Assembly: GCA_041390905.1 (NCBI GenBank)
Contig: JAWKPA010000012.1
Coordinates: forward strand, 63,216 to 127,215
Origin: Chloroflexota bacterium
GTDB lineage: Bacteria; Chloroflexota; Anaerolineae; Promineifilales; Promineifilaceae
Reading direction: 5' to 3'
DNA: 64,000 nt
The number at the start of each line of letters is the position of its first letter. The stretch's first letter is position 1. Shown here one piece after another: positions 12,805-62,950 of this stretch. The translations under genes were made by a program, and so were the position numbers. Below the pieces are notes generated by a model. The model was not told the DNA's origin. It did not search any database and saw only the letters and a list, made by a program, of their open reading frames with translations.

Positions 12805-12892
12805 AGGGGAATAGAGATTGGGGATTGGAGATTGGAGATTGATGAAGGGTTTCAATCTCCAATCTCCAACCACTAATCTCCCTTTGCTTGAT
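12805..12892. repeat. heptamer-tandem hairpin element (GGAGATT / AATCTCC type)
   Basis: gattggggattggagattggagattgatgaagggtttcaatctccaatctccaaccactaatctcc. Sits at the 3' end of the S2P gene. Confidence 0.75.
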
Positions 12893-14039
12893 CCAAAATC
12901 GCCTGTAGCCACGCCGCTTCGGCCAGGTTGGCCCCGGTTTGGGGATGATGACGCAGGATGTCGAGGCCAATTGTGGCTCTGGCGTGGGCGGCGGTGTGGT
13001 CGCCTTCGCGCAGCAGCACGGCGGCTTCGGCGCGGCAGGACAGGGGATGTTTGTGGCTGCGGCGGTGCAGCCGCTCCAGCCATTCCCGCCCTTCGGCCGG
13101 GTTGTTTTGGTACATGGCGAGCAGGTATGCCTTTTCCAGGGTAAAGCGGCCGACGGCACCGGGAAAGCGGCTGGCGCGGAGAGTGAAGGCATCGTCGAGG
13201 AGGAGGTTGGCTTGGGAAAAACGGCCGTTATCCACCATCCACTGATACACCAGCAGCCGCGCCATCATCCCTTCCGACGACGCATCCAGCCCTGCCAGCA
13301 CCTGCTGCACCATCGTTTCATCCCAGTCGCGGGGGCGCTGCCCCTGCACATCGGCACTGTTGAGGGCAACCAAGGCGCACCAGCGTTGGGCTTCGGCTCC
13401 GTTTTGCAGCAGCATGAGGATGCGGCCCCCGTCGGCGGGCATCCCGTTGGGATAGGTACCGGGTTTCATGGAGGTGAGGAAGAAGATGAGGGAGGAAACG
13501 GCCGTTATTGCCGCACCTTCCCCCAGCCAGGCCGGAGCCGTAGACGGCAGCCCGTAGAACAACGCCCCCGCCAGCAGCGCCAGCAGCAAACTTGCCACCG
13601 GCCCACCCAGGGCAAACAGCAGCATCCGGCGGCGCAAATCATAAATCTCTTCCGGGATACAGGCCGCCAGCCCGTTAAATGCCCCGCCCCGGCTCAGGCC
13701 AAGGCGCAGCTTGCCCGTTTCGCGGCTGATTTTCAACGGCCCCACCACCAGCAAATGAAAACGTAATTTTGCCAGCCGACCGCCCAGCAAATGCCCCAGC
13801 TCATGCACGGCCGAGGTGAGTAGCAGCAGAGCCGCCCCCACTAGCAGCAGCCGCAAAAAGCTGCCAAACAAGCTGCTTCCCCCGGCCAGTTGCGCCCGGA
13901 TAGCAATGCGGTTGACGTTGACCACCACAAGCCCCAACAGCCCGTAGAGCGTCAGGTTAAACACCCACGCCCACGCCGTCACCAGCCACGACTGCGGCCG
14001 GCGGCGGTACGGTTGGTCTAGTTCACTGTTAACGCTCAT
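12873..14039 (-). CDS. M50 family (site-2 protease-like) zinc metalloprotease
   Basis: HELGH motif in a TM helix (AVHELGHLLGG). Multi-TM protein. Start at MSVNSELDQ (cat 14037-14039). The upstream ORF extension reads through the hairpin. Confidence 0.7.
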   Translation of the reverse strand: MSVNSELDQPYRRRPQSWLVTAWAWVFNLTLYGLLGLVVVNVNRIAIRAQLAGGSSLFGSFLRLLLVGAALLLLTSAVHELGHLLGGRLAKLRFHLLVVGPLKISRETGKLRLGLSRGGAFNGLAACIPEEIYDLRRRMLLFALGGPVASLLLALLAGALFYGLPSTAPAWLGEGAAITAVSSLIFFLTSMKPGTYPNGMPADGGRILMLLQNGAEAQRWCALVALNSADVQGQRPRDWDETMVQQVLAGLDASSEGMMARLLVYQWMVDNGRFSQANLLLDDAFTLRASRFPGAVGRFTLEKAYLLAMYQNNPAEGREWLERLHRRSHKHPLSCRAEAAVLLREGDHTAAHARATIGLDILRHHPQTGANLAEAAWLQAILDQAKGD

Positions 14040-14112
14040 GGGGATGTGTGGGGAGTAGGGTGTGGGGTGTGGGGTGTAAACACGCTCCACACCCTACACC
14101 CTACTCCCCACG
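14040..14112. repeat. heptamer-tandem hairpin element (GGGTGTG type)
   Basis: ggggagtagggtgtggggtgtggggtg - taaacacgctc - cacaccctacaccctactcccc. Confidence 0.7.
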
Positions 14113-14122
14113 TCCAAACAAA

Positions 14123-15109
14123 TTACGACTGCAACAAATGCGCCACAACGTCGCGCTCTTCACGCAGTTCGTCCAGCGTGGCCTGGATTTTGCTTTGGGC
14201 AAAGTCGTTGAGCGGCACACCCTGCACGATGCTGTAGCCGCCCTGCCCGTCGCTGACCAGCGGGAAGGAGAAGATGAGGCCGGGGTCAATGCCGTAGCTG
14301 CCGTCGGAGGCCACGGCGGCGGAGAACCAGTTGCCTTCCGGGGTTTTGGCTTCAAAGCTGCGAACGTGGTCGAGGGCGGCGGAGGCGGCGGAGGCGGCGG
14401 AGGATTTGCCGCGTGCCTGGATGACGGCAGCACCCCGTTTTTGCACGACGCTGATAAATTCGCCGCGCAGCCAAGCCATGTCGTTGATGACTTCGGGAGC
14501 GGGACGGCCGTTAATTTTGGCATTTTCCCCGTCGGGATACTGGGTAGCACTGTGGTTGCCCCAAATCGTGAGGTTGCTCACCTCGTTAATGGACACCCCC
14601 GCTTTTTGCGCCAGTTGGGCATAGGCGCGGTTCTGGTCGAGCCGGGTGAGAGCGCCAAACCGTTCACGCGGAACGTCGGGGGCGTTGTTCATGGCGATGA
14701 GGCAGTTGGTGTTGGCCGGGTTGCCCACCACCAACACGCGCACATCGGAGGCACCGCGCTGGAGTGCCTGACCTTGCCCGGTAAAGATGGGGCCGTTTGC
14801 CAAAATCAGGTCGCCGCGCTCCATGCCGGCACTGCGCGGGCGTGAACCAACCAGCAGCGCCCAGTTTACGCCGTCAAAGGCGACGTTGGGGTCGTCGGTA
14901 ATGACCATTTTTTCCAGCAGCGGGAAGGCACAGTCGTCCATTTCCATGACCACCCCTTCCAGCGAGGGCAAGGCCGGGGTGATTTCCAGTAGGTGCAGAT
15001 GGACCTTGGTGTCCATGCCAAACACTTCGCCGTTGGCAATGCGCGGTAATAGTGAGTAACCAATCTGCCCAGCCGCGCCTGTAACAGCAACTTTAACAAC
15101 TCGTGACAT
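14123..15109 (-). CDS. mdh: malate dehydrogenase (NAD-dependent, LDH/MDH family)
   Basis: [21 protein letters not shown]... [19 protein letters not shown]... [16 protein letters not shown] lies 9 nt upstream of the ATG (cat 15107-15109). Confidence 0.9.
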
Positions 15110-15242
15110 GATGTTTTTCTCCTTAATCGAATCGGTTGGGGTTGCCAAACTCCGTTCTGGCGCATCTGCCCGTTTGTAACCCCAATCGTGATTTGTAAAG
15201 GTAATCTTTTGGATAATGAAATTATCGCCCATTGGCGAAAAG

Positions 15243-15330
15243 TGGCAAACGGTATTCAGTAATCAGTAATCGGTAATCGGTGTGCTACCGTTTACTGATT
15301 ACTGTTTACCGATTACTGTTTACTGCTCCC
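15243..15330. repeat. heptamer-tandem hairpin element (CAGTAAT/CGGTAAT type)
   Basis: cagtaatcagtaatcggtaatcgg - tgtgctaccg - tttactgattactgtttaccgattactgtttactg. The same heptamer family as 62883-62950. Confidence 0.7.
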
Positions 15331-16118
15331 CGCTGGCGGACGACTTCGTAGAGCAATAACGCGGTAGCGGTGGACAGGTTGAGGCTGTCGGCGATGCCGT
15401 GCATGGGGATGACGACGTGGGTGTCGGTTTGGGCAAGCCAGTCGTGGCCGAGGCCGTGGGCTTCGCTGCCCATGACGATGGCGACGGGGCCGTGCATGGG
15501 GACGCGGGTGTAGCTGGTTTGCCCGGCGGGGGTGGCGGCGATGATTTGGATGTGGCGTTGGTGGAGCCAAACGGCCGTTTCTTCCACCCCACTCACCGCC
15601 ACCGGCACATGAAACAGCGTCCCCAGGCTGGCTCGCACCACGTTGGGGTTGAACAGATCGGTGCTGCTGTCGCCGGTGACAATCACCCCATCCACCCCGG
15701 CAGCGTCGGCGGTGCGGAGAATGGCACCCAGATTGCCCGGCTTTTCGATGTTGTCCACGACGACATAAAACGGGTTGGCTGTTGGCGGCAGGTCGGCCAG
15801 CCGCGTCGGCCAGTAGGGAACGGTTAGCACCACGCCGCCGCTGTCACCACGATAGGCGATTTTTTGAAAAACGGCCGTTGTCACCTCCACCCATTCTGCC
15901 CCCCGCGCCGCCACCTGCTGCAATTGTGCCACCAGTTCGTGGTTGGTGAGCAGTTCCGGGCAGACAAAAACGGCCGTTGGCATCACGCCCGCCGCCAAGG
16001 CTCGCAGCACCTCCCGCTCCCCCTCCACCAGCGTCAGCCGCGCTGCGTCCCGCTGCCGCCGGTTGTTAAGTTTGACAAGCTGTTTAATACGGCCGTTTTG
16101 CAAGCTGGAGATTAGCAT
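15306..16118 (-). CDS. SpoU/TrmH family RNA 2'-O-methyltransferase
   Basis: NPGNLGAILRTADAAGVDGVIV motif. Start placed at MLISSLQNGRIKQ (cat 16116-16118). The ORF N-terminal extension is a translation of the hairpin. Confidence 0.75.
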   Translation of the reverse strand: MLISSLQNGRIKQLVKLNNRRQRDAARLTLVEGEREVLRALAAGVMPTAVFVCPELLTNHELVAQLQQVAARGAEWVEVTTAVFQKIAYRGDSGGVVLTVPYWPTRLADLPPTANPFYVVVDNIEKPGNLGAILRTADAAGVDGVIVTGDSSTDLFNPNVVRASLGTLFHVPVAVSGVEETAVWLHQRHIQIIAATPAGQTSYTRVPMHGPVAIVMGSEAHGLGHDWLAQTDTHVVIPMHGIADSLNLSTATALLLYEVVRQRGAVNSNR

Positions 16119-16136
16119 GAGGGGCGGATATTTGTC

Positions 16137-16202
16137 GAGATTGGAGGTTGGAGATTGGAGATTGATGAAGGTTGACAATCCCTAATCTCCAATCTCCAAT
16201 CC
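16137..16202. repeat. heptamer-tandem hairpin element (GGAGATT type)
   Basis: gattggaggttggagattggagattgatgaaggttgacaatccctaatctccaatctccaatcc. Confidence 0.75.
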
Positions 16203-16206
16203 CCTT

Positions 16207-16710
16207 TCAAAGCAAGGTAATAAACCCAAACTCCCGTTCGGAATCCGTCAACGCCTTGACGTAATCCTTAGCAAAAAAGTTTTTGATTTGGAGGAACACT
16301 GCCTCATAAAACGGGTCAAGCTGCCCCCTCGCCCCTTCAGGAATGCGGATTTCGCGGCCATTTTTGCCCAGTTTTACAATGAAATGCTCGCCGACTTTCT
16401 TGATAAAGAAGCTGAGGACAAAGGATCGCAGGTGAGAACGGCCTTGATCATGCACCGCCAGCTCGACGCCAAAATGCCAAAACGACTCATCCCCCATCCG
16501 CATGGCTCCAGCAAGGGCGTAGAAGCGGTTTGACGGGTCAAACTCTTCGCCCAGCGGAATGTAGGTGATCTCTTGGTCTTGCGGCCATTCAAGATAATCC
16601 ACCATGCCAAAAACCAGCTCCCGCGCAAAGTCGCGGCATGTCTCTTCGTATTCATTAAATGTGCGTCGAGCTTGGCTATACGCCTGACAAATTTCTTCAA
16701 ATTTACTCAT
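16207..16710 (-). CDS. hypothetical protein (167 aa, lower GC)
   Basis: ORF with no recognisable motif. AT-richer codon usage than its neighbours. Confidence 0.45.
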   Translation of the reverse strand: MSKFEEICQAYSQARRTFNEYEETCRDFARELVFGMVDYLEWPQDQEITYIPLGEEFDPSNRFYALAGAMRMGDESFWHFGVELAVHDQGRSHLRSFVLSFFIKKVGEHFIVKLGKNGREIRIPEGARGQLDPFYEAVFLQIKNFFAKDYVKALTDSEREFGFITLL

Positions 16711-17682: not shown

Positions 17683-18348
17683 TCAGACCCACCCCAACTC
17701 AGCTAGATAAACCTGGAACATAAGCGAAAAGGCGTGAGCTGGTTGCCCAAAACTGAGGACAAACTCTCGTTCCAGCTTTGTTATTCCTGGCCTGCCTTCA
17801 CGTAATTGGCGTTCCCGAATTGCCCGTAACAAACGATCAAACTCGCGTAGCTGTTTAACACGCAAGTAATTTAGCTGCTCACGATCCAAATGGTATTTCC
17901 GAATCGTTTGGCTCCCTTTGAATGAGCCATACCGAGAGCGAATATATTCATCCTCAAATGATAAATGATCTTCGGGTAAGTCAATATTGTTGCAAGGATC
18001 AAGACAATCAGCTAAGGGAATTCGTGCATTTGGCTGCTTTTTACGGTTACATTCCCGGCATGCCCAGCATAGATTCTCCCATGCAAAGGCCAAGTCTGGG
18101 CGTTCTGCAACCTCCATAACGTGATCAACTTCCCCCTCGCTCTCAGCCAGCTTGCGTTCACAGTAAAAACATTTGCGGAAACTCATGGCGGCCAGCGTTT
18201 CACGAATCTCTACATGACGATATTGGCTGGAAGGGGGACGACTGGCAGGAGATGCTTGGCGTTTCTTTAAATACGCCTCCGTCCATCTCGCCTTGTTTTT
18301 AGTCAAAATAGCTGGTTCTGGTGGTCTCGACAATGTTCTCAAGCTCAA
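17683..18348 (-). CDS. HNH endonuclease (PtuB-like partner of the upstream ATPase)
   Basis: CFYCERKL ... EVDHVMEV ... NLCWACRECNRKK (HNH ββα-metal motif). Overlaps the ATPase stop by 4 nt. Low GC. Confidence 0.75.
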   Translation of the reverse strand: MSLRTLSRPPEPAILTKNKARWTEAYLKKRQASPASRPPSSQYRHVEIRETLAAMSFRKCFYCERKLAESEGEVDHVMEVAERPDLAFAWENLCWACRECNRKKQPNARIPLADCLDPCNNIDLPEDHLSFEDEYIRSRYGSFKGSQTIRKYHLDREQLNYLRVKQLREFDRLLRAIRERQLREGRPGITKLEREFVLSFGQPAHAFSLMFQVYLAELGWV

Positions 18349-19589
18349 AATCCCCCACGGGCCAACGACTGGATCATTTTGTCAACATCAAAATAGGAAA
18401 AGGCTTCAGGATTTAGCTGCTTCAACTGCGCTTCAATTTCATCTTGCAAGCGATGGTTATTTGACGCAATAGCCTCTTCCCGCTGTTCAAGCAGTTGCGT
18501 AATTTCTTCGTTATACGGTTGCGTTTCTTCAAAAAGTGGCGACATCAAAATTTCATCAACAGGTTTGTTGCTATACTCATCCGTTTCATCTACGACAACG
18601 CAGTGATCCCCGCGTGATTGGCAGACAAACAGACGGGCATTGGGTACCGACGAAATGATGAACGGCGAGTGCGTGGTAGCAATAATTTGCAAATTGGGGA
18701 AAAGCTCCAGAATGGTTCTAATAAACCGCTTCTGCCATTTGGGGTGCAGTTGGTTCTCTGCCTCATCAATTAACAGCAGCCCTGGTGTTTGCCCCAATTC
18801 CGACAAAGGCGTTTTCCGCAAAAAATGAACGGAATACATTTTTCCAAGCAAAGCAACCAGATTTTGAATTAGATATGAGTTGCCACTGCTAAGATTTTCT
18901 AAACCAACCTCTTGTCCATTTTGGATAATGATTGGCTCATAGGTAGCACGGGCAACATGACTTAATTTACCTCCATCGATCAGACTGTTAGCAATTATTT
19001 GCTCTAGCATGCTGTACAACTTCATGCCCATATTGCGTTCAGTGGTATCTCGACTATCTCGAAGATAATCAAAATGGCAAATTAGTTGCGTAATCTCATA
19101 TTTAGCTTTTATTCCATTCAAGGAATCTGTTAAATACTGCTCGTGCTTGGGGCTTATGAGCGAATGCACGTTATACGATCCACTTGCTGTTGTAGAAGGC
19201 CAGTAATCAACGAGCCAATCAGGTGCCGAATTTCCCCGCGCTACCTGGTATGGCATTTCATAAATTTGAATTGAGTCAGTATGAATCACTGTACTCGTCT
19301 CTCGCCGCTCAAACACTTTGGAGCTTAATTGCAGAAAGGAATTTTCTGGCTCCAGGCTTAACTCAATGTTTGCCTTATCGACCTGTCCTCTTCTGGGAAG
19401 GTCTCGTTCTAATTTGCAAAAATGTTCACCAAACATGCCACGAATGGCATCCAGGATGATGCTTTTGCCAGTTCCGTTTTCGCCTGTAATTAGCACAACG
19501 GGTGGTTTTTCATCCGTTTCGTTGAAAAAATCGAGTTCGGCTTCGATGAAAGGGCCAATGTTTTGGAGAGACAACTTTTTAACTCTCAT
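18345..19589 (-). CDS. AAA_21/ABC-type ATPase (PtuA-like; SMC/RecF-like N-terminus)
   Basis: Walker A GENGTGKSIILDAI. Signature LSSGNSYLIQNL. Walker B LLLIDEAENQLHP. H-loop ATTHSP. Low GC (about 43-45% by eye). No HIP copies. Confidence 0.8.
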   Translation of the reverse strand: MRVKKLSLQNIGPFIEAELDFFNETDEKPPVVLITGENGTGKSIILDAIRGMFGEHFCKLERDLPRRGQVDKANIELSLEPENSFLQLSSKVFERRETSTVIHTDSIQIYEMPYQVARGNSAPDWLVDYWPSTTASGSYNVHSLISPKHEQYLTDSLNGIKAKYEITQLICHFDYLRDSRDTTERNMGMKLYSMLEQIIANSLIDGGKLSHVARATYEPIIIQNGQEVGLENLSSGNSYLIQNLVALLGKMYSVHFLRKTPLSELGQTPGLLLIDEAENQLHPKWQKRFIRTILELFPNLQIIATTHSPFIISSVPNARLFVCQSRGDHCVVVDETDEYSNKPVDEILMSPLFEETQPYNEEITQLLEQREEAIASNNHRLQDEIEAQLKQLNPEAFSYFDVDKMIQSLARGGF

Positions 19590-19678
19590 AGGGCATTCTC
19601 ACTAATTGTGTTTTGCTGCATTGTACTGGGTTATAAACAAGAATTCTACCTTTCGCACACGCAGCCAAGCTCCAATCT

Positions 19679-21739
19679 CTAATCCCCAATCTTTCTGACC
19701 TGCCCCATAACAGACACATCATAACCGGGGAGAGCAGAAACGGCCGTTCTTACCTCCCCATCATGAAGCAAATCCAGCAGCGGCTTCAACTGTTCGCTTT
19801 CATAGTAGACGAGCGGGATCACCAGCTCATACTGCTCATGCGCCAGCGGCACAAAACCGAGGTTCAGCGCCCGCGCCGCCGCCTGAATCCCCAGCCCGGC
19901 ATCAGCCACGCCAGATGAAACCGCCGCTGCCACCGCCAAATGGGTATATTCCTCCCGCTCATAGCCACGCACCTGCGCCGGGTCAATCCCCCGCCGCCCC
20001 AGCTCATAATCCAGCAGCACCCGCGTGCCTGCCCCCCGCTGCCGGTTGACAAGCTGTATATCCGGGTTGGCCGCATCTTCCCAGCCCGCCAGCCGCTTGG
20101 GGTTGCCCGGCGGCACCATCCACCCTTGCTCCCGCCCCACCAGCGTCACCACCGCCACGGGCTGCCCCGGCAGATAGCGACGAATATAGCTGTCATTGTA
20201 AATCCCCGTTTCCGGGTCGAGCAGGTGCGAGCCAGCCAGATGTGCTTCGCCGCGCCGCAGGGCCACCAGCCCGCTTAGGCTGCCGACGTTGGCCGACATG
20301 AGACGAAAAACGGCCGTTTTTTCCGCCAAAAACTGAGCCAGCACATCCAGCGTCAAATCATGGCTGCCAATCGCCACAATCGTGCGCTCAATTTCCCTGG
20401 GCGTACGGTACAAATGCACCGTCACCGTCGCCCCGGCGTCTTCTCCTTCGCTAAAGCGGGGAATGCGAACAATCCCATCGGCTCGCACCAGCGAGGTGAT
20501 GACCCCCGCGCCGCGACTGATGGGGGTGGTCATGATGTTGTCGCCCACCTTGCCCACCGCCACCCGCACAAAGTCGTCGTCGCCAGTGTGGGAATTGATT
20601 TTGCGCGTTAGTCTGGCCTGAATCGTCGGCGGCTCATACGCCAGCCGCCCCTGCCACCGTGCCAGCAGCGGCTCGACAAAGATTTCGCCGGTGAGGGCGG
20701 CACTAACGGGGTAGCCGGGTACGCCGATGATGGGGGTGGTGTGGGGTGTGGGGTGTGGGGAGATTGGAGATTGGTTATTGGAGATTGGAGATTGGGAGGT
20801 TTCTAATCTCCAATCTCCAATCTCCAATAACCCAATGATAACGGGGTGGCCGGGGCGGACGGCCACGCCGTGTACCAGCAGTTGGCCGAGTGATTGGACA
20901 ACGTGGGCGGTGTAATCTTCGCTGCCGGCCGATGACCCGGCGTTGAGCAGAATGAGGTCGTGGGTTTGGGCGGCTTCACGAACGGCCGTTTGAATCGCCC
21001 CAAACGCATCCGGCACAATCGGCCAGCGGGTGGGCAACCCGCCCCAGTTGGCAACCTGCGCCGCCAGCACAATGCTGTTGTATTCGATGATTTGGCCGGA
21101 AGCGATGCCCGCAGAAACGGCCGTTTCCGCTGAGATTAGCTCCGACCCCGTGGGAATAATCGCCACTCGCGGCTGCCGGTAAACCGTCACCGTGGCATGA
21201 CCCGACCCCGCCAACGCTCCCAAATCCACTGGCCGCAGCTTGTGGTTGGCAGGCAGCACCAGCTCCGTCGCCACCATGTCCTCGCCCATGGGGCGCACGT
21301 GGTGCCACGGCGGCAGTGCCGCCCGAATCTGGATGCCGGGGGTGCCGTCGGGCAGCGTCACCGGCTCGGTGTGTTCAATCATCACCACGGCGTTGGCCCA
21401 ATCGGGCAGCGGGTGGCCGGTGTTGACGGCCTGAATGGGACGCGTTACGCTGTCGGGCGGGGTGTCTTTGTCAATGAGATTGAGCGTCAGGGGAGTGGTT
21501 TCGCTCGCTCCCACTGTGTCCTGCGCCCGCATGGCGTAGCCGTCCATGGCGCTGGCGTGGTAGTGGGGGGCGGATAGTTTGGCAAAAACGGCCGTTGCGG
21601 TTAAACGGCCGTTGGCCTCCGCCACCGGAATCGTCTCGCTGCCCAATGGCCGCCACAAATCGGCCGCCTCTAACGCCGTCCGCAGCGCCGCCTGCGCCTC
21701 GTCCAGCGGAATGTCCTCAAGGTAGATATGTCTTTTCAT
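19679..21739 (-). CDS. moeA: molybdopterin molybdotransferase MoeA fused to a C-terminal PBP-like (periplasmic-binding-fold) domain; contains an in-frame repeat insertion
   Basis: MoeA N-terminal and MPT-binding domains (…HGVAVRPGHPVIIGLL / IIGVPGYPVSAALTGEIFVEPLL). The C-terminal approximately 260 aa resemble the PBP_like domain commonly fused to MoeA. Confidence 0.8.
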   Translation of the reverse strand: MKRHIYLEDIPLDEAQAALRTALEAADLWRPLGSETIPVAEANGRLTATAVFAKLSAPHYHASAMDGYAMRAQDTVGASETTPLTLNLIDKDTPPDSVTRPIQAVNTGHPLPDWANAVVMIEHTEPVTLPDGTPGIQIRAALPPWHHVRPMGEDMVATELVLPANHKLRPVDLGALAGSGHATVTVYRQPRVAIIPTGSELISAETAVSAGIASGQIIEYNSIVLAAQVANWGGLPTRWPIVPDAFGAIQTAVREAAQTHDLILLNAGSSAGSEDYTAHVVQSLGQLLVHGVAVRPGHPVIIGLLEIGDWRLETSQSPISNNQSPISPHPTPHTTPIIGVPGYPVSAALTGEIFVEPLLARWQGRLAYEPPTIQARLTRKINSHTGDDDFVRVAVGKVGDNIMTTPISRGAGVITSLVRADGIVRIPRFSEGEDAGATVTVHLYRTPREIERTIVAIGSHDLTLDVLAQFLAEKTAVFRLMSANVGSLSGLVALRRGEAHLAGSHLLDPETGIYNDSYIRRYLPGQPVAVVTLVGREQGWMVPPGNPKRLAGWEDAANPDIQLVNRQRGAGTRVLLDYELGRRGIDPAQVRGYEREEYTHLAVAAAVSSGVADAGLGIQAAARALNLGFVPLAHEQYELVIPLVYYESEQLKPLLDLLHDGEVRTAVSALPGYDVSVMGQVRKIGD
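20727..20836. repeat. composite heptamer hairpin element (GGGGTGT x3 plus GGAGATT arrays) inserted in frame inside moeA
   Basis: ggtggtgtggggtgtggggtgtggggagattggagattggttattggagattggagattgggaggtttctaatctccaatctccaatctccaataacc. Translated within MoeA as LEIGDWRLETSQSPISNNQSPISPHPTPHTTP. Confidence 0.8.
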
Positions 21740-21814: not shown

Positions 21815-22018
21815 GAACCGCAGAGTTCGCAGAGGGCGCAAAGACAGAGAAGTTGGATACGGATAAAAACAATGAGCCAGTAAGTGAGATTGTAATAAGT
21901 TACAAGAGATTGGAGATTAGAGATTAGAAACGAGCCAATCTCCAATCTCTAATCTCCATTTTGTATATCTAACCTTCCTTCCTAAACCTCCGCGCTCTTT
22001 GCGCCCTCTGCGGTAAAT
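21815..22018. repeat. nested element: outer IR (CCGCAGAGGGCGCAAAGA ... TCTTTGCGCCCTCTGCGG) enclosing a GGAGATT-type heptamer hairpin (21893-21958)
   Basis: Lies between the divergent moeA and DUF4956 gene starts. The outer arms match the element at 345-470. Confidence 0.6.
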
Positions 22019-22026
22019 TGTAAAGA

Positions 22027-22698
22027 ATGCAAGATTTGCTTAACCTCAACAACCCGGCTCCGCTCCGTCTAGACTATCTGGCAATCAACATGCTGCTGGG
22101 CATTGCCCTTGCCAGCATCCTGGCCTGGTTTTATGCCCGCTACGGCCAATCCCTCTCCAACCGCGCCAAATTTGCCAACATGCTGCCCGTGCTGGCTCTT
22201 GTCACCATCCTCATTATTTCCGTCGTCAAATCATCGCTGGCACTGTCGTTAGGGCTGGTGGGGGCACTCTCTATTGTCCGTTTTCGCACCGCCATCAAGG
22301 AACCCGAAGAGCTGATTTACCTCTTCACCGCCATTGCCATTGGCCTGGGGTTGGGGGCTGACCAGCGCTGGCCGACGGTGGTGGCAATTGCCATCATTCT
22401 GGCCTACCTCTATGTGCGTACCTTGCTTACTCCCCAGGCGCAAAAAAACAACCTCTATCTCAGCCTGTCCACACCCGATGAGGCGACCACCTTTGCCGAC
22501 ATCAACGCTCTGCTGAGGGAACACACTGCCGCTGCCGAACTGCGCCGTTTAGACCATATCAACGGCACGCTCCATGCCACCTATCTGGTTAACTGCCGCG
22601 ACAACAATGCTTTGGCTGCGCTGCTGGACGCGCTGAAAGCGCAGCAACCGGAGGCAGAGTTTAGCTTTGTGGAGCAGGACAACACCCTGGGCGCGTAG
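22027..22698 (+). CDS. DUF4956-like membrane protein
   Basis: 223 aa with 4 TM helices. This family is typically encoded next to CotH-family proteins. Confidence 0.6.
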   Translation: MQDLLNLNNPAPLRLDYLAINMLLGIALASILAWFYARYGQSLSNRAKFANMLPVLALVTILIISVVKSSLALSLGLVGALSIVRFRTAIKEPEELIYLFTAIAIGLGLGADQRWPTVVAIAIILAYLYVRTLLTPQAQKNNLYLSLSTPDEATTFADINALLREHTAAAELRRLDHINGTLHATYLVNCRDNNALAALLDALKAQQPEAEFSFVEQDNTLGA

Positions 22699-22728
22699 TC
22701 GCGTAGTCGCGTAGGTGCATAGCGGGCG

Positions 22729-25460: not shown

Positions 25461-25552
25461 CGCGTCCTCCAAAATTCTTCATGCTGAAAGAGTTAAACAC
25501 TCTCCTGGCAAAATCGTCACGGGAATTGGGGTATTGATGTGGAAAAAGAAAC

Positions 25553-25612
25553 AAGAAGAGGCTTGGAGATTGATAGAGGTTCACAATCTCCAACCCTCAA
25601 TCGCTAATCTCC
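25553..25612. repeat. heptamer-tandem hairpin element (GGAGATT type)
   Basis: ggcttggagattgatagaggttcacaatctccaaccctcaatcgctaatctcc. Sits at the 3' end of the M20 peptidase gene. Confidence 0.7.
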
Positions 25613-26869
25613 AGGTGCCTCATAGCCACAAAAGCGCAAAATCGTCAGGGCTAACGTGCGGGTAACTGTTTTTAAATCTTCGATGGGGACAAACTCATCG
25701 GGCTGATGAGCGTGGCGCACATCGCCGGGGCCAAACATGACGGTGGGGGTGTAGCCGTCGTTGACCAGCAGCCGCATGTCAGCGCCGTAGGTCATGCCCT
25801 GAATGCGGGCGGGTTGGCTGGTGATGGTGTTGAAGGCGTGGGTAACGGCCGTTAATATCCCCTCATCTTCCGCAATCCGCGCCGGGGCAAACTGCCCACC
25901 CCACCAAACCACCATCGGCGGATGCTCCCGCAGCCACGGATCCGCCTGCGCCGCCGCCGCCACCGTTTCCTCAAACAACCGCCGCGCCGCCGCCACATCC
26001 TGCCCCACGGCAATGCCAAATCGCCCTTCAAACGTCAGGCTCTCCGCCACCGTTGAAGCCCAGCTACCCGCCTGAATCGTCCCCACGCACAGCGGATAGG
26101 GCAAATCATAGGCGGCGTAGTAGGGATCATCAAACGACTCGTTTTGCTGTTTTTCCAGAGCCATCAAGGCCGCATAAATCGGCATAAACTTCTCAATGGC
26201 GCTCACCCCTTCCGTGCGCATGGCACCGTGGGCAGCACGGCCAGGAATGGTAATGCGAAAGTTAAGTGCCCCCGCCTGCGCCGGAGCCACCATCAACTCA
26301 GTTGGCTCCATGATAATCGCCCCATCGGCCTTGTAGCCCCGCGCCACCGCCGCCAGCGTCCCCACGCCACCGTCTTCTTCACCAATGACGCTTTGGATCA
26401 TCAGCTTGCCGCGCAGTGCCACCCCGACATCGAGAATGGCTTTGGCGGCAAAGAGGGCGCAGCACAGCCCACCCTTCATGTCCAGTGCCCCGCGCCCGTA
26501 AACGTTGCCGTTGGCAATGGTTCCTTGCCACGGTGGCACTGTCCAGTTTGCCAGCTCACCGGCCGGCACCACGTCGGTGTGGCCGTTGAGGATGAGCGAT
26601 TTGCCCACGTCGCCGCCCATGATCCCCACCACCCCCAGGCCATGCTCGCGCTCCACTTCCACGCAAAAGGAGGGGTGCTGGCTAAGGGCAGCAAAATCGA
26701 GTTCCCAGGCATCTACCTCTAACCCAATGGCCTGCATTTTGGCGGCAACGTGCTGCTGAACGGCCGTTTCCTCCCCATCCAAACTCCGCACGGCCACCAG
26801 TTCGCACAGGTAAGCCAACATGTCATCAAAATTAATGGCGTCCAGGACGCGCTGTTCTGTTTTGTTCAT
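25604..26869 (-). CDS. M20 family metallopeptidase (ArgE/DapE/CPG2-like)
   Basis: LNGHTDVVP ... GRGALDMKGG ... SVIGEEDGG motifs. Confidence 0.85.
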   Translation of the reverse strand: MNKTEQRVLDAINFDDMLAYLCELVAVRSLDGEETAVQQHVAAKMQAIGLEVDAWELDFAALSQHPSFCVEVEREHGLGVVGIMGGDVGKSLILNGHTDVVPAGELANWTVPPWQGTIANGNVYGRGALDMKGGLCCALFAAKAILDVGVALRGKLMIQSVIGEEDGGVGTLAAVARGYKADGAIIMEPTELMVAPAQAGALNFRITIPGRAAHGAMRTEGVSAIEKFMPIYAALMALEKQQNESFDDPYYAAYDLPYPLCVGTIQAGSWASTVAESLTFEGRFGIAVGQDVAAARRLFEETVAAAAQADPWLREHPPMVVWWGGQFAPARIAEDEGILTAVTHAFNTITSQPARIQGMTYGADMRLLVNDGYTPTVMFGPGDVRHAHQPDEFVPIEDLKTVTRTLALTILRFCGYEAPGD

Positions 26870-28604: not shown

Positions 28605-28730
28605 TACCCACATATGGGTGCTTGAGTGATAAGCTTTTCGGTACCCAAAGCCTGTTTCTCCTATACCGTGCCAACGGTTGGGGGGAGTCAAGTTTTCTTT
28701 AAGAAACGCGGATTAAATACGGGAGAAGTT

Positions 28731-28767
28731 CAACTTCTAAGAAAAAGTTGAACTTCTAACCCTAACG
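28731..28767. promoter_or_regulatory. pair of 15-bp palindromes AGAAGTTCAACTTCT / (a)AAGTTGAACTTCT (copy 1)
   Basis: A nearly identical pair occurs at 30963-31000. Both lie upstream of SPFH-family genes on the + strand. Confidence 0.45.
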
Positions 28768-28800: not shown

Positions 28801-29013
28801 ATGAAGCCCCGGTGGAGGTTGGTTTTCATGATTCACAATAGTTCCCCCCCGCATTCATAACCCCATTGATCTGGTTCCATATTGGCTGGTCATAAACGGC
28901 CGTTTTTGCTTGTCACCACATACTTTCTGCAAGTAACAAGTAACAAGTCGCAAGCCCCTTTTGCCCAGCGAGCTTGCCACCTGCCACTTGCCACCTGCTA
29001 TAGAGAAACTATC

Positions 29014-30940: not shown

Positions 30941-30962
30941 CAGGATTTCTGGCGGAAAGGCA

Positions 30963-31000
30963 GAAGTTCAACTTCTTCTGAGAAGTTGAACTTCTAAATA
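30963..31000. promoter_or_regulatory. pair of 15-bp palindromes AGAAGTTCAACTTCT-tctg-AGAAGTTGAACTTCT (copy 2)
   Basis: Perfect copy. Lies 115 nt upstream of the flotillin start. Confidence 0.45.
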
Positions 31001-31115
31001 GACTCATGTTTTGCGCTTGTCATTTACGGCCGTTTTCGGCAAGAATGGACAGGTGTGGAAACGATAATGGGGTAACCGTGTGTTCGCCCCACAAAAGATG
31101 TCGAAAGGAAACATC

Positions 31116-41492: not shown

Positions 41493-41513
41493 TTCTGTCA
41501 ACCCTATAAGATC

Positions 41514-42749: not shown

Positions 42750-42762
42750 AACTGTTTGGAAT

Positions 42763-42822: not shown

Positions 42823-42828
42823 ATTTTT

Positions 42829-43705: not shown

Positions 43706-43713
43706 TTATCCCC

Positions 43714-44822: not shown

Positions 44823-45863
44823 ATGTCCAGGATCAAACGCTTTACCCCCATCCTTGCACTCATCGTCACCACGCTACTCGCCCTGTCTGCCTGCCAGCAA
44901 GAAGCAGCCAGCACAGAGCTTAACCTGCTTTGTACCCCCCAGGTGGAATGGTGCGAAGGGATGAAAGCGGAGTTTGAAGCTGCAAATCCCGAAATCACCG
45001 TCAACTTTGTGCGTATGTCCAGCGGCGAATCGCTGACCAGGCTGCGGAATGAAAAAGACAACCCCCAGTTTGACATCTGGTGGGGTGGCCCGATTGACAG
45101 CTTCATTGCTGCCAAAGATGAGGGTTTGCTCGAAGCCTATGACTCACCCAACCTCGACAACATCAAAGACCCCGGCCTGATGCTCGACCCTGACCACACC
45201 TGGGCCGGTGTGTATGTAGGTTCACTCGGTTTTGCCACCAACCAAAACTTCCTCGACGAAAACCCCGGTCTGGAACCACCGCGCAGTTGGGACGATTTGC
45301 TGAAACCAGAGTTTGCGGGGCAACTCATGGTAGCCCATCCGTCCAGCTCCGGCACCTCTTACACCGCCCTCTGCACCGTGCTGCAAATGCGGGGCGAGGA
45401 TGCTGGTTGGGAGTATCTGAATGCCTATGCCGGGCAGGTGAACCAGTTTACCAAGAGCGGTTCGGCTCCGGCACGGTTTGTGGGTCAGGGAGAAGCGGCC
45501 GTTGGCATCGTCTTCTCCCACGACATTGTAGCCCAAATTGAAGCCGGCGCGCCGCTGGTGCTGACCTTCCCCGAAGAGGGAACTGGCTACGAAATTGGTG
45601 GTATGGGGATCATCAAAGGGGCCGCCCATCTGGATGCGGCGCAGAAATGGTTTGATTGGGCGTTGGAACCAGCTACGCAGGAGCTTGGCCCCAAATACGC
45701 TGCCTTCCAGGCACCCACCGTCAATGGAGCCGAAGCCTCCATGCCGGAACTGCTGGATGTCAACCTGATTGACTACGACTTCCAGTACTGTGGCGAAAAC
45801 AAAACCGCCTTTGTAGACCGCTTCACCAACGAAATCGCCAACGCTGATAGTTTGAAAGAGTAA
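44823..45863 (+). CDS. ABC transporter substrate-binding lipoprotein (iron(III)/FbpA-AfuA-like, SBP family 1)
   Basis: AGGAGG upstream of ATG MSRIKRF. Lipobox LALSAC. Followed by a permease and an ATPase. Confidence 0.85.
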   Translation: MSRIKRFTPILALIVTTLLALSACQQEAASTELNLLCTPQVEWCEGMKAEFEAANPEITVNFVRMSSGESLTRLRNEKDNPQFDIWWGGPIDSFIAAKDEGLLEAYDSPNLDNIKDPGLMLDPDHTWAGVYVGSLGFATNQNFLDENPGLEPPRSWDDLLKPEFAGQLMVAHPSSSGTSYTALCTVLQMRGEDAGWEYLNAYAGQVNQFTKSGSAPARFVGQGEAAVGIVFSHDIVAQIEAGAPLVLTFPEEGTGYEIGGMGIIKGAAHLDAAQKWFDWALEPATQELGPKYAAFQAPTVNGAEASMPELLDVNLIDYDFQYCGENKTAFVDRFTNEIANADSLKE

Positions 45864-45935
45864 TTGGGAGATTAGGAGATTAGGAGACTGGGAGACTGTC
45901 TGTAGAGTTTCTCAGTCTCCCAGTCTCTCAGTTTC
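45862..45935. repeat. hairpin element (GGAGATTA / GGGAGACT heptamer-like arrays) between the SBP and permease cistrons
   Basis: ggagattaggagattaggagactgggagactgtctgtagagtttctcagtctcccagtctctcag. Confidence 0.7.
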
Positions 45936-45961
45936 TTAATCCCATCCAGGTAACGCATTTT

Positions 45962-48262: not shown

Positions 48263-48344
48263 TGGAGCGAGTAACAGGTGGCATGTTGCAAGTACAAAGA
48301 CTTGCCACCTGCCACTTGTTACTTGTTACCCTTCTGGAGCGCAT

Positions 48345-60477: not shown

Positions 60478-61629
60478 ATGATTACCCTAATTGCCACAGC
60501 CAAATTTGGGCTGGAAAAAATGGTGCGGCTGGAAGTGGCGGCACTGGGTTTTGACAACATTGCCGTGTCGCCGGGGCGCATTGAGTTTGCGGCGACGCTG
60601 GCCGATATTCCCCGGCTTAACCTGTGGCTGCGCTGTGCCGACCGGCTGCTGCTGAAGGTGGCGGAATTCCCGGCGACGACGTTTGATGATCTGTTTGAGC
60701 AGTGCAAGGCCATTGAATGGGAGCGGTGGATTGGGGAAAACGGCCGTTTTCCCGTCGCCGCCCACAGCGTCAAATCCACCCTCATGAGCGAACGAAGCTG
60801 TCAATCCATTGTCAAAAAGGCGGTCGTGGATCGGTTGAGTGCGGCGTATGGGGTGGCATGGCTGGCGGAAACGGGCGCCGAATACGCCATTCACCTGTCG
60901 CTGCACAAGGACGTGGCTCTGCTGACGCTCGATACCTCCGGCGCGGGGCTGCACAAGCGGGGGTACCGCGAGGAAGCGGGGGAAGCACCGCTGAAGGAGA
61001 CGCTGGCGGCGGCGCTGGTGAAGTTGAGCTATTGGCGACCCGATAGGCTCTTGATTGACCCCATGTGTGGCTCTGGCACCATCCTCATCGAAGCGGCACT
61101 GATGGCGCGGAATATAGCTCCGGGGTTAAAACGGCCGTTTGCTGCCGAGCAGTGGCCCATCATCCCCGCTGCCGCTTGGGCAGGAGCCAGGCACGAAGCC
61201 GAAGCCGCCATTCGCCACGACATGGCACTGCAACTTTATGGCTACGATAGTAACCCCGCTGCCATTGCCATTGCCAAAAGCAATGCTGCCAAGGCAGGGG
61301 TAGGCGACGACATTGTGTTTGCCGTCAAAGACGTGCGGGAACTGTGGATTGACCAGCAGCACGGCATCGTCATCACCAATCCACCCTACGGCATGAGGAT
61401 GGCCGAATATCAGACGCTCAACCAAATCTACATCGCCCTCAACAAAATGTTCCGCAAAAAGCAGGGCTGGTCAGTCTATGTCCTCACTGCCGACCACAAA
61501 TTCCCCGACTACTTCAAACGCGCCCGCCCCGACCGCGTTCGCAAGCTCTACAACGGCACGATTGAGGCCAATTACTATCAATATTATGGGGAAAAGCCGC
61601 CGGGGGGGAAAGAGAATTATGAATTATGA
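60478..61629 (+). CDS. THUMP-domain class I SAM-dependent RNA methyltransferase (RlmL/YpsC-like, COG0116)
   Basis: N-terminal THUMP region. DPMCGSGTILIEAA. ITNPPYG catalytic motif. Confidence 0.8.
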   Translation: MITLIATAKFGLEKMVRLEVAALGFDNIAVSPGRIEFAATLADIPRLNLWLRCADRLLLKVAEFPATTFDDLFEQCKAIEWERWIGENGRFPVAAHSVKSTLMSERSCQSIVKKAVVDRLSAAYGVAWLAETGAEYAIHLSLHKDVALLTLDTSGAGLHKRGYREEAGEAPLKETLAAALVKLSYWRPDRLLIDPMCGSGTILIEAALMARNIAPGLKRPFAAEQWPIIPAAAWAGARHEAEAAIRHDMALQLYGYDSNPAAIAIAKSNAAKAGVGDDIVFAVKDVRELWIDQQHGIVITNPPYGMRMAEYQTLNQIYIALNKMFRKKQGWSVYVLTADHKFPDYFKRARPDRVRKLYNGTIEANYYQYYGEKPPGGKENYEL

Positions 61630-61672
61630 ATTATGAATTATGAATGGTTCATAATTCATAATTCATAATTGC
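61612..61672. repeat. heptamer-tandem hairpin element (GAATTAT / ATAATTC type) between convergent genes
   Basis: gaattatgaattatgaattatgaatggttcataattcataattcataattgc. Confidence 0.8.
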
Positions 61673-61681
61673 TAAGGGAAT

Positions 61682-62164
61682 CTATACCCCCTCCACCAAA
61701 ATCCGCGTAATCTGCTCCAAATGGTCGTTGTCGTGATGCCCCACCTGAATGGCGGCATCGGTCACGTCAAAGCTGTCGCGTTCGGGGTGAACGCCGGTTC
61801 GCGCCCACTGCGCCGCGTCCAGCGATTTGAACAAGGCCACAAACCGCTCCCGCGAGGCGACCAAATCGGCATACGCCCGGTGTAAATCTTGCTCGTTGTA
61901 GCGCAGGTCAATGGCAATTTGCTCGTGGTCGTAGGCGGGTAGCATGGGGTGGTCTTGTTCCAGCATCATCATGACGCGGTGGTAAAAAAAGCCGTCGAAG
62001 TCACGCAAATGGCAAACAACTTCAAGGATTGTCCAGCCGTTGGGGCCATCACGCCGGGAAACGGCCGTTTCTGGCGACACCAACTGCAAAATATGCCCCA
62101 ACGTCTTTACACTGTTCTGCATCAGCCGCACGTGACGCTTCTGCAACATTTCAATCGGTTCCAT
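61682..62164 (-). CDS. DinB/YfiT-like (DinB_2) family protein
   Basis: 160 aa. His-rich motifs (HLRDFDGFFYHRV … HHDNDHLEQI) are typical of the DinB_2 four-helix-bundle metal-binding family. Confidence 0.6.
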   Translation of the reverse strand: MEPIEMLQKRHVRLMQNSVKTLGHILQLVSPETAVSRRDGPNGWTILEVVCHLRDFDGFFYHRVMMMLEQDHPMLPAYDHEQIAIDLRYNEQDLHRAYADLVASRERFVALFKSLDAAQWARTGVHPERDSFDVTDAAIQVGHHDNDHLEQITRILVEGV

Positions 62165-62186
62165 AATGGTTTATTCTCTCCTTTTC

Positions 62187-62876
62187 TCAACCAGCAGCGT
62201 GAGACAGCACCCGCTCCGGGTAATTCGTAAACACCCCATCCACCCCCCAGCCACGCAGCCGGGCAATGTCGTCGGGTTCGTTGACGGTGTAGGGCAGCAC
62301 CAGCAGGCCGTGGGCGTGGGCTTCCCGGACAAACAGCTCCGTTAACCCCTCATACCAGGGATTAACCGACGCGGCTTGTAGCCGCTGCGCCGTTGGAATG
62401 CCCACCTCCATGTTGTCCCACAGCAGCACCCCCAGCGGCACCTCGGTGTGGTGCTGGCGGGCAATGGCAAGCTCGTCGTGGCGGAAGGAGGAGAGGAGAA
62501 TTTGGCGCAGATCCCAGCCGGCCGCGAGATAGGGCTGCAGGAAGTTGAGGGTGGAAACGGCCGTTTCCGGCCCCTTCAACTCCACATTAATCCCCACCCG
62601 CCTGTCCACCAAATCAAACACCTCCCGCAGCAGCGGGATTTTTTCCCCTTTGCCCGCATCCAGCGAACGCAAATAGGCCAGCGATTGCGCCATCACCAGC
62701 CCCGTCCCGTTTGTCGTCCGGTCCAGCTCGTCGTCATGAATGACAACCAGCTCCCCCTCTACCGCATACACATCAATCTCAATCCAATCCACCCCCAATT
62801 CCAACGCCTTCGCCACCGAACGCAGCGTATTCTCCGGCTCATGTCCCATTGCTCCACGATGTCCAATGCACAACAT
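62187..62876 (-). CDS. glycerophosphodiester phosphodiesterase (GlpQ/UgpQ family)
   Basis: MLCIGHRGAMGHEPENTL … EIDVYAVEGELVVIHD (catalytic His/Glu motifs). Confidence 0.85.
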   Translation of the reverse strand: MLCIGHRGAMGHEPENTLRSVAKALELGVDWIEIDVYAVEGELVVIHDDELDRTTNGTGLVMAQSLAYLRSLDAGKGEKIPLLREVFDLVDRRVGINVELKGPETAVSTLNFLQPYLAAGWDLRQILLSSFRHDELAIARQHHTEVPLGVLLWDNMEVGIPTAQRLQAASVNPWYEGLTELFVREAHAHGLLVLPYTVNEPDDIARLRGWGVDGVFTNYPERVLSHAAG

Positions 62877-62882
62877 AATTCT

Positions 62883-62950
62883 TGGAAGTAATCAGTAATC
62901 GGTAATCAGTTGGGGTCACTGATTACCGATTACTGATTACCGATTACCCT
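62883..62950. repeat. heptamer-tandem hairpin element (CGGTAAT type)
   Basis: cagtaatcggtaatcagttggggtcactgattaccgattactgattaccgattacc. Confidence 0.75.

Follow-up and report, generated by a model that had tools for sequence, protein, structure and literature searches.

What are the tandem-repeat hairpins that stand at so many gene junctions of this Chloroflexota genome, and what keeps them there? The 64,000-nucleotide stretch analysed here (Promineifilaceae, contig JAWKPA010000012.1, positions 63,216 to 127,215; hereafter the window) contains about 23 hairpins with tandem-array arms, made mostly of heptamers with GGAGATT as the dominant unit. At least eight unit types are represented at these loci, and 20 of the 48 gene junctions are occupied, while two copies lie in coding sequences. 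With moderate confidence, we favour the reading that they are hairpins of the short tandemly repeated repetitive (STRR) type and form a small, non-coding palindromic simple-sequence class that occurs across Anaerolineae-type Chloroflexota. STRR heptamer repeats have been known in cyanobacteria since 1990, and their origin and function are not understood. The elements described here would be largely selfish or near-neutral repeats at the DNA level, whose arrays would change in copy number by slippage and which would persist only where they are tolerated, that is, in intergenic spacers of every type and in a few permissive protein loops.

The hairpins are far more frequent than expected by chance. 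Tandem Repeats Finder showed that period-7 arrays are usually paired, a unit being followed a few bases on by its reverse complement, and an inverted-repeat scan returned the same pairs as arms of 20–44 nt with 80–100% complementarity and loops of 2–20 nt. The sequence GGAGATTGGAGATT, allowing up to two mismatches, had 43 matches in the window versus 0.38 expected. In our own scan, 21 arrays had period 7, whereas periods 5, 6, 8, 9 and 10 gave 1–6 arrays each. Strong hairpins (score ≥11) numbered 26, compared to 0.5 per dinucleotide-preserving shuffle, and the best arm period was 7 in 14 of them. RNA folding, which a sequence-only reading of the window had proposed as a check, gave −26 to −57 kcal/mol for 14 elements, with z-scores from −2.8 to −11: thirteen had z between −4.6 and −11 and were equalled by no shuffle, and the weakest fold (25545–25620, z −2.8) was equalled by 2 of 200 shuffles. 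Hairpins with tandem-array arms at the places listed by that reading were thus borne out by all three methods. Identical elements also recur at identical loci in independently built assemblies (NCBI, ENA and Logan), which excludes assembly artefacts. No Rfam family at gathering thresholds and no tRNA was found in the window.

In each element, a G-rich tandem array is followed by a short loop that is usually unique and then by a complementary C-rich array. The arrays are mostly built from 7-nt units of a limited shared set, in which GGAGATT dominates and CGGTAAT/CAGTAAT, CGTGAAA, GTCCGTT and GGGTGTG recur. GGAGATT units are interspersed with GGGGATT, and the variant units are not mirrored between the two arms (no compensatory pattern; e.g., 39284–39348). 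As GGAGATT has runs of two G only, it does not form a canonical G-quadruplex, which requires at least four tracts of at least three G; only the GGGTGTG arrays at 14042–14077 and 20736–20760 qualify. The earlier list of heptamers stood for most GGAGATT, CGGTAAT, GAATTAT and GGGTGTG sites and for GGACGAC at 8251, but the elements at 35700, 38690, 42763 and 45862 are not heptameric. The supposed full GGAGATT hairpin at 41345 is only a half element, a direct array at 41357–41386. Of two supposed half elements, the one at 19672 is a true half, whereas that at 22696 is only a direct octamer repeat (CGCGTAGT, 2.9 copies, 22692–22714, between DUF4956 and the next gene) and no half hairpin; it includes GTAG, the classical tag of repetitive extragenic palindromic (REP) sequences, but has no inverted partner. 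Our scans added the elements at 393–468, 28930–28998, 35634–35697 and 48270–48323 and the outer hairpin at 21815–22015 (Table 1).

Table 1 Repeat elements of the window, with positions counted from its first nucleotide
Element	Position	Strand	Context and properties
Hairpin, 9-mer arms (CGCAAAGAG)	393–468		14 nt 3' of NUDIX gene stop
GGACGAC heptamer hairpin	8251–8317		Between divergent amidase and GNAT genes; −45.4 kcal/mol, z −7.5
GGAGATT hairpin, loop TGATGAAGGGTTTCA	12806–12881		405-aa gene/ABC-F junction; first unit holds stop of upstream 405-aa gene, element ends 2 nt before ABC-F start
GGGTGTG/GGGAGTA heptamer hairpin	14042–14115		Mdh/405-aa gene junction; −57 kcal/mol
CAGTAAT/CGGTAAT heptamer hairpin	15241–15334		SpoU stop codon inside
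GGAGATT hairpin, shared loop motif	16137–16204		167-aa gene/SpoU junction
Half element, one arm only	19665–19692		MoeA stop; left edge of 2-kb AAA-ATPase and HNH insertion
GGGTGTG direct array (20736–20760) and GGAGATT hairpin (20759–20833)	20736–20833	−	In frame within MoeA-PBP gene; peptide LLEIGDWRLETSQSPISNNQSPISPHPTPHTTP
Composite, outer 9-mer hairpin (CGCAGAGGG/CGCAAAGAG)	21815–22015		Between divergent MoeA and DUF4956 genes; loop encloses GGAGATT hairpin 21905–21958
Short GGAGATT hairpin (2 units per arm, weak), shared loop motif	25553–25612		M20 peptidase/FabH junction
CAAGTAA/TGCCACC arrays, imperfect hairpin	28930–28998		Divergent DDAH/476-aa gene junction; related to 48270–48323
GGAGATT hairpin	32886–32961		Between convergent Band7 and S58 peptidase genes
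Hairpin, 9-mer arms (TTGACAAGA)	35634–35697		Racemase start
GCGGAT-type hairpin, 44-nt arms, irregular 8–11-nt units	35723–35820		Downstream of CoA-transferase gene
GGAGATT hairpin, shared loop	37060–37123		PMT_2 gene/CoA-transferase junction
Composite, 10-mer arms (ACGCGGACAA) about 110 nt apart	38689–38853	−	Read through in frame, DUF998/PMT_2 gene
GGAGATT hairpin	39284–39348		Radical-SAM gene/PMT_2 gene junction
Half element, direct GGAGATT array, 4 units	41357–41386		Upstream of radical-SAM start
Essentially plain 32-nt inverted repeat (GGGACGCAGATTTACCTGATTT...)	42760–42825		DLH/SDR junction; part recurs within 38689–38853
GGAGATT hairpin and CCAATAA array	43638–43706		AKR/DLH junction; shared loop, opposite orientation
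8-mer hairpin (GGAGATTA/GGGAGACT)	45863–45941		Between ABC substrate-binding and permease genes
GTAACAA/GGTGGCA hairpin	48270–48323		Between ABC permease and ATPase genes
GAATTAT heptamer hairpin	61614–61675		Between convergent RlmL and DinB genes; z −9.7
CAGTAAT/CGGTAAT heptamer hairpin	62883–62948		Phosphoenolpyruvate carboxylase (PEPC)/GDPD junction; z −11

The strongest evidence on how these elements behave comes from close relatives. Proteins of the window have matches of 92–97% identity in ENA metagenome scaffolds and in 'Ardenticatenaceae bacterium' HK-STAS-CHLO-38. In four loci from relatives in this identity range (L110, L111, L114 and L115), orthologous junctions, whose comparison had been proposed together with the hairpins, turned out to be filled, empty or occupied by another type rather than identical. 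Between the 405-aa gene and ABC-F, the window and L110 have a GGAGATT hairpin, whereas L111 has none and the two genes overlap (ATGA). The CAGTAAT hairpin between SpoU and Mdh is shared by the window and L111 and missing from L110. At the PMT_2/CoA-transferase junction, the window has a GGAGATT hairpin, L114 only TAA-GGAGGTTTGTTTC-ATG, and L115 a GGTGGCT heptamer hairpin within flanks common to the window (TAATCTG ... GGAGTTxCCCT). No target-site duplication was found when filled and empty sites were compared at these three junctions.

Beyond these presence/absence sites, one type is replaced by another at five junctions. The GGGTGTG hairpin between Mdh and the 405-aa gene corresponds to a 9/10-mer hairpin in L111, and the CAAGTAA/GGTGGCA hairpin between the ABC permease and ATPase genes to a GGAGATT hairpin in both L114 and L115. 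The latter two also have a GGAGATT hairpin between the CoA-transferase and racemase genes, where the window has a GCGGAT-type and a 9-mer hairpin (the 9-mer hairpin 35634–35697 is absent from both), and they share an unrelated non-periodic hairpin in place of the 8-mer hairpin between the substrate-binding protein and permease genes. Between the S58 and Band7 genes, the window and L114 have a GGAGATT hairpin and L115 a GGGCGTA/GGGTGTG hairpin. At the divergent DUF4956/MoeA junction, the outer 9-mer hairpin is common to the window, L110 and L111, while its loop is empty in L110, contains a GGAGATT hairpin in the window and another hairpin in L111, showing that elements are nested. Array copy number differs between relatives, and a deletion in L114 has shortened the hairpin 39284–39348. 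The window, L114 and L115 all retain the inverted repeat at 42760, the composite at 38689–38853 and the half array at 41357.

In addition, a 17-nt loop, TTGATGAAGGTTCACAA, is common to five GGAGATT hairpins of the window with up to three mismatches (0.18 expected), four in one orientation and one in the other, and it is also present at other junctions in the relatives. Since this loop is shared, whole elements have been copied within the genus. Whole hairpins have thus been copied to new sites, and copies have been lost or replaced, with a rapid turnover among close relatives. Loop sharing is confined to the window's genus: the loops of 135 matches from different genomes are essentially all different, and a classical element family with a loop conserved across genomes was rejected on these grounds.

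This turnover also bears on a mobile origin, which the sequence-only reading had inferred from the copies between divergent starts and inside genes. The elements could be REP-like or miniature inverted-repeat transposable element (MITE)-like sequences that do not move autonomously but by a transposase encoded elsewhere, e.g., a tyrosine transposase of the IS200/IS605 type acting on single-stranded hairpins, which would recognise the heptamer arms. The clean presence or absence between close relatives, the nested insertion in hairpin loops, the 17-nt loop of five copies, a fixed polarity such as terminal inverted repeats would give (see below) and the lack of elements in a probably recently acquired island are all in line with such movement, and same-site intragenic copies are also known for REPs (PMC3733652). 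REPs and bacterial interspersed mosaic elements (BIMEs) are likewise short extragenic palindromes found mostly 3' of genes, variable in abundance, with occasional intragenic copies and a proposed role in mRNA stabilisation or termination (PMC3733652). They differ, however, in having stems of 5–13 bp without tandem units, a GTAG or CGTC tag and a link to REP-associated tyrosine transposases (RAYTs), whereas the stems here are 20–30 bp long. The GGAGATT (main type), CAGTAAT and GAATTAT elements have no GTAG or CGTC, and GTAG was seen only inside GGGAGTA/GGGCGTA units. Pfam searches of the window revealed no RAYT gene or other transposase, nor did the annotated genes of the fetched relatives (about 100 neighbouring genes). 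Loops are unrelated between genomes, variant units are not mirrored between arms, and a single sequence-specific enzyme would not explain why many unrelated units share one architecture. We therefore regard transposase-driven mobility as possible but rather unlikely. The mobile or REP-like character originally proposed is partly supported by presence/absence, type replacement, nesting and the five copies with one loop; the MITE assignment is dropped, as we found no target-site duplications, conserved termini or transposase.

The position of the elements relative to genes had suggested that they terminate transcription or stabilise mRNA. We compiled a gene map of open reading frames (ORFs) and Pfam matches with 48 internal junctions (34 tandem, 7 divergent and 7 convergent). 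As tallied on this map, a hairpin with periodic arms is present at 15 of the tandem, three of the divergent and two of the convergent junctions, and at tandem and convergent junctions it starts 0–12 nt past the upstream stop codon or contains it. The stop codon lies inside an element for the 405-aa gene, SpoU, MoeA, M20, S58, RlmL and PEPC. The predicted location at gene boundaries (20/48 junctions), including copies between divergent starts (3/7), therefore holds, as do the two copies inside ORFs, which are genuine and in frame (20736–20833 in MoeA and 38689–38853 in the PMT_2 protein).

The symmetrical hairpins could be bidirectional terminators that replace the canonical hairpin and U-tract in this lineage: their stems are very stable and start 0–12 nt past stop codons, two copies are found between convergent genes, and a hairpin of some kind is usually kept at a junction despite a change of type. 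Consistent with a replacement, a scan of 30–50 kb for canonical terminator-like sites found 35 (25 expected), none of them (0/35) at an element. Nevertheless, most hairpins have no T-run in their 3' flank in the window. The exceptions are 42825, where the T-run is confined to the plus strand and is antisense with respect to either neighbouring gene, and 21958, where a short TTTT follows the inner hairpin. Elements also occupy divergent junctions, where no gene has its 3' end, as often as tandem ones (three of seven and 15 of 34, respectively), and lie within probable operons (ABC transporter substrate-binding protein/permease/ATPase) and inside two coding sequences; some junctions are empty in a close relative (e.g., PMT/CoA-transferase in L114), and one copy separates two genes whose L111 counterparts overlap by ATGA. 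Sense-strand mismatches comprise eight A·C and five G·U pairs, a sample too small to exclude a weak effect; as G·U is not in excess over A·C, selection on the sense RNA is not indicated. Intrinsic terminators resemble the elements in forming a stable stem-loop just after the stop codon, but the elements combine 20–30-bp stems without a U-tract with a location that extends to divergent junctions, operons and genes. Termination as their function is thus not supported by these data, and we consider it quite unlikely. We favour a tolerated DNA-level repeat class because the classical terminator signature is missing. Transcribed elements would still fold, and a REP-like barrier to 3' exonucleases or operon punctuation would then be the most likely consequence, rather than canonical Rho-independent termination. 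The elements may also stabilise mRNA.

In-frame copies are tolerated because GGAGATT and AATCTCC arrays are free of stop codons in every frame. The MoeA-PBP element lies in frame between VRPGHPVIIG and IIGVPGYPVS. In an alignment of 120 Chloroflexota orthologues, the length of this MoeA loop ranges between about 15 and 65 residues, and the loop often contains in-frame hairpins, of different types, or else none. Its peptide LEIGDWRLE...QSPISNLQS is a translated GGAGATT/AATCTCC hairpin, and other loop peptides that encode hairpins are GDKVTRGQGDKVT...PVTPSPGHPVT and RGAGEQG...SPLHPSPLP. The DNA of seven orthologues bore this out: four had GGAGATT hairpins, Ca. Leptofilum gracile had a GGTGACA-type hairpin (−62.7 kcal/mol), and of the remaining two one had a composite structure and the other a short repeat-free loop. 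REPs located at the same recB site in two Xanthomonas species (PMC3733652) are a precedent for such same-site intragenic copies. The second in-frame element, 38689–38853, is read through in the DUF998/PMT_2 protein; in the relatives, a 3-nt indel close by preserves the frame. For the same reason, namely the lack of stop codons in any frame, ORFs run into the arrays. Gene calls did so at 14039–14090, 15107–15232, 16101–16178, 39270–39342 and 41311–41400, and N-termini in the window are over-extended compared to relatives: 290 versus 264 aa for SpoU, 369 versus 327 for Mdh, 737 versus 720 for PMT_2 and 681 versus 651 for the radical SAM protein.

The two arms are not equivalent. In all nine GGAGATT hairpins of the window (9/9) the G-rich arm is the 5' arm; because an element is palindromic, both strands read 5'-(GGAGATT)n-loop-(AATCTCC)n-3', and a hairpin beginning with AATCTCC is a different sequence. 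Among the loci retrieved with the exact GGAGATT pattern (see below), GGAGATT hairpins were G-arm first in a ratio of 144:2, at least 103 of them having been seeded by the search. Counted by base composition, G exceeded C in the 5' arm in a ratio of 143:2 for the GGAGATT type. The rule is general, as the 5' arm also had more G than C in 48 of 52 other heptamer hairpins (48:4), in 14 of 17 hairpins with 8–11-mer units (14:3) and even in non-periodic hairpins (79 versus 37). An absolute polarity was ruled out by 39 metagenome loci (L119–L157) with (AATCTCC)n-loop-(GGAGATT)n hairpins, in whose flanks we found seven forward and no further reverse copies. As to the cause of polarity, we can only speculate that selection acts against C-rich, G-poor RNA that is exposed to Rho before the partner arm is made: if the C-rich arm were transcribed first, it would offer Rho an exposed loading site, but as the second arm it would be paired at once.

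GGAG is the core of the Shine-Dalgarno sequence, and CUCC resembles the anti-Shine-Dalgarno sequence. The arrays might accordingly be regulatory sites bound by a protein or the ribosome that tune translation or the coupling of neighbouring genes. We know of no protein that binds the arrays. GGAGATT is conserved across the whole class while loops are free to vary, elements adjoin stop and start codons, and in some reverse-polarity copies (e.g., L149 and L157, '...GGAGATTttacATG', with gene starts unannotated) an ATG follows the GGAGATT arm at a distance of about 7 nt, so that the arm could act as a Shine-Dalgarno sequence. Translational coupling has been suggested for STRRs (PMC2670836), and the TAACTGA repeats of Beggiatoaceae have been proposed to be bound by S1, Csp or CsrA (PMC4679880). 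This contrasts with the fact that CAGTAAT, GAATTAT, GGGTGTG and GTCCGTT form the same architecture without any likeness to a Shine-Dalgarno sequence, and that both arms are sequestered in the hairpin. Moreover, presence or absence between close relatives indicates that elements are dispensable at a given gene, and we find a regulatory role highly doubtful.

To see how far the class extends, we searched a collection in which each species is represented by one genome for exact matches to GGAGATTGGAGATT-N5-25-AATCTCCAATCTCC and obtained at least 103 loci. Among the matches listed (80), 79 were from Chloroflexota metagenome-assembled genomes (MAGs), the exception being a 2.7-kb contig of a 'Roseobacter sp.' MAG; hosts among these matches included Ardenticatenaceae, Caldilineaceae, Ca. 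Leptofilum/Leptovillus, Anaerolineae, Roseilinea, Brevefilum and an 11-Mb 'Chloroflexia' MAG. Of 317 strong hairpins in these loci with GGAGATT hairpins (about 0.86 Mb), 180 had period 7. Units that recurred across genomes without having been seeded were AATCGGT (= CGGTAAT), AATCAGT, CGTGAAA, GTCCGTT and GGATGGA, as well as the 8-mers GGGTAATT and GGGAGATT. Neither polarity of the GGAGATT hairpin was present in the 2.9 million viral contigs of IMG/VR, which rules out carriage by these phages. In a literature search that mostly did not cover subscription journals, we found no description of this family in Chloroflexota beyond (GATAGRA)n satellites and GTAG REPs; the former were reported for Chloroflexus (PMC6749651), and the latter for the Chloroflexi phylum, with the GTAG-23 family mapped in Thermomicrobium roseum (PMC3733652).

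The likeness to cyanobacterial STRRs suggested by the sequence-only reading holds. In both cases, tandem 7-nt units of several types are dispersed in one genome, mostly in intergenic regions, and can form hairpins; close relatives have variable but structured intergenic regions, as far as Jackman & Mulligan (1995) are reported in PMC2670836; and an iterated palindrome co-occurs, highly iterated palindrome 1 (HIP1) in cyanobacteria and AACGGCCGTT here. The cyanobacterial flavour is nonetheless misleading, and a cyanobacterial origin was ruled out, as the lineage is Chloroflexota and HIP1 (GCGATCGC) has 0 copies in the window, whereas the original STRR hosts are heterocystous or filamentous cyanobacteria. 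Palindromic pairing, on the other hand, is less unusual than had been proposed: hairpin-forming 7-bp STRRs are 'not unusual' in filamentous cyanobacteria, one lies between hupS and hupL, and stabiliser, coupling and terminator roles have been discussed (PMC2670836). Pairing is the rule here, whereas the GGGGA(C/T)T arrays of Nostoc include 'only a few paired repeats' (PMC4692102). The units also differ, GGAGATT being one base away from the GGGGATT of Nostoc, and a strong G-arm-first polarity and in-frame intragenic copies are documented for the elements here.

A second counterpart is found in Xanthomonas, with about 185 GGGAATC arrays including 70–75 inverted pairs 'in convergent orientation', whose position is conserved between species while length and sequence vary (Rehm et al. 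2015, PMC4692102). These are also G-rich intergenic heptamer arrays, and they share the hairpin architecture and, it appears, the polarity of the elements here. They have, however, one dominant unit that was read as G-quadruplex-forming. Here there are many unit types, of which GGAGATT is not capable of forming a canonical G-quadruplex, one type may take the place of another at a given junction, and elements occupy about 40% of the junctions. According to work cited in PMC4692102, the excess of heptamers among bacterial simple repeats is ascribed to polymerase slippage. The TAACTGA repeats of Beggiatoaceae, cyanobacteria and Bacteroidetes are likewise intergenic tandem heptamers in filamentous bacteria of unrelated phyla, and a unit found here, TTACTGA/ATTACTG, is one base off TAACTGA; they are, however, almost always direct arrays just 5' of start codons (169 direct sets versus one inverted; PMC4679880) and not hairpin pairs. 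Membership in the REP, MITE or intrinsic-terminator classes is not supported, since each fails in at least one defining feature that we tested. The hairpin phenomenon is thus not new in kind; it corresponds to the heptamer repeats known, but poorly understood, from cyanobacteria and Xanthomonas.

Several observations weigh against the idea that the hairpins are merely tolerated STRR-type repeats. Three relatives have retained the element at 42760, the composite at 38689 and the half array at 41357, and this conservation may indicate function. With respect to copying, the window and the fetched relatives revealed no mechanism (no target-site duplications, conserved ends or transposase), and as different genomes have unrelated loops, origin in place rather than transposition could account for much of the family. 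That GGAGATT is conserved throughout the class and that the polarity is so strong points to sequence-specific selection or to dedicated machinery and is not explained by a purely neutral or selfish model. Reverse-polarity GGAGATT hairpins also exist (39 metagenome loci). Any effect on RNA is one that we infer. A dedicated, sequence-specific machinery might make and maintain the hairpins, the fixed polarity being functional, and might be a single system that includes an iterated palindrome and recurs in filamentous bacteria of unrelated phyla. It would connect the related words GGAGATT/GGGGATT/GGGAATC and TTACTGA/TAACTGA of Chloroflexota, cyanobacteria, Xanthomonas and Beggiatoaceae; the G-arm-first polarity could serve, for example, as a Rho-proof, direction-independent punctuation mark for operons, and heptamer repeats plus AACGGCCGTT (HIP1 in cyanobacteria) could form a genome-maintenance or expression system. 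We consider this very unlikely.

Whatever their origin, the STRR-type hairpins represent the same design in a second phylum and at very high density, about 40% of gene junctions. The same junction differs in informative ways between close relatives, and the MoeA loop is a natural insertion trap covering more than 100 lineages. Together with the polarity rule and the iterated palindrome, the density, the junction turnover and this trap make an old question testable, namely that of mobility versus origin in place, of selection at the DNA or the RNA level, and of a role in transcription termination. The elements also have practical consequences: the hairpins break short-read assemblies (contigs with these genes are mostly 2–6 kb long), and the stop-free arrays mislead gene callers into extending ORFs, as in SpoU and Mdh.

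The palindromic decamer AACGGCCGTT has 75 sites in the 64 kb (0.10 expected), i.e., about one per 850 bp, mostly in genes (e.g., 488–497, 1354–1363 and 1376–1385). Its core ACGGCCGT occurs at 1.1–1.4 per kb in the window, in the relatives and in about 100 Chloroflexota loci with forward GGAGATT hairpins, but is almost absent from the metagenome loci with reverse-polarity hairpins (0.018 per kb). AACGGCCGTT is a HIP1-like highly iterated palindrome in Chloroflexota. It was not among the top-ranked matches of a literature search in which the term was not tested alone.

The segment 49546–60431 has a GC content of 42–51%, compared to about 58%, and encodes a 1657-aa Kelch/M23/fn3 protein, an LVIVD-repeat protein and a LuxR-type response regulator with its histidine kinase. 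RlmL comes directly after the ABC ATPase gene in L115, and as the low-GC segment is missing there, it is an inserted island that was probably acquired recently. No periodic hairpin was found in this segment, and AACGGCCGTT has only five copies in it.

Other palindromes and insertions were observed. A second small palindrome family, AGAAGTTCAACTT(CT)...AAGTTGAACTTCT, is present at 28724–28757 and 30962–30995, and a 66-nt block around the latter site (30944–31009) is absent from L114 and L115. Both also lack a 110-nt insertion (41423–41532) that contains a perfect 40-bp palindrome without a loop (41453–41492) inside imperfect 51-nt arms; instead, they have a different 116-nt insertion a few bases from that site.

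The AAA_15/AAA_21 ATPase and HNH endonuclease genes form a 2-kb insertion (17683–19692) that is absent from L110 and L111 and present in the same-strain contigs L001 and L003. At its edges are a GGAGATT-type half array, at the MoeA stop, and a single GAGATTG unit. The pair may be a defence-like two-gene island that integrated at a repeat; the idea that the island had split the half element at 19665 was not confirmed, as the other edge has only the single GAGATTG. Finally, the same-strain contig L001 (Logan SRR25565209) has an HpaB-like gene after the 167-aa gene instead of SpoU (15306–16710 in the window), and the breakpoint of this rearrangement or strain variant is at the position of the GGAGATT hairpin 16137–16204.

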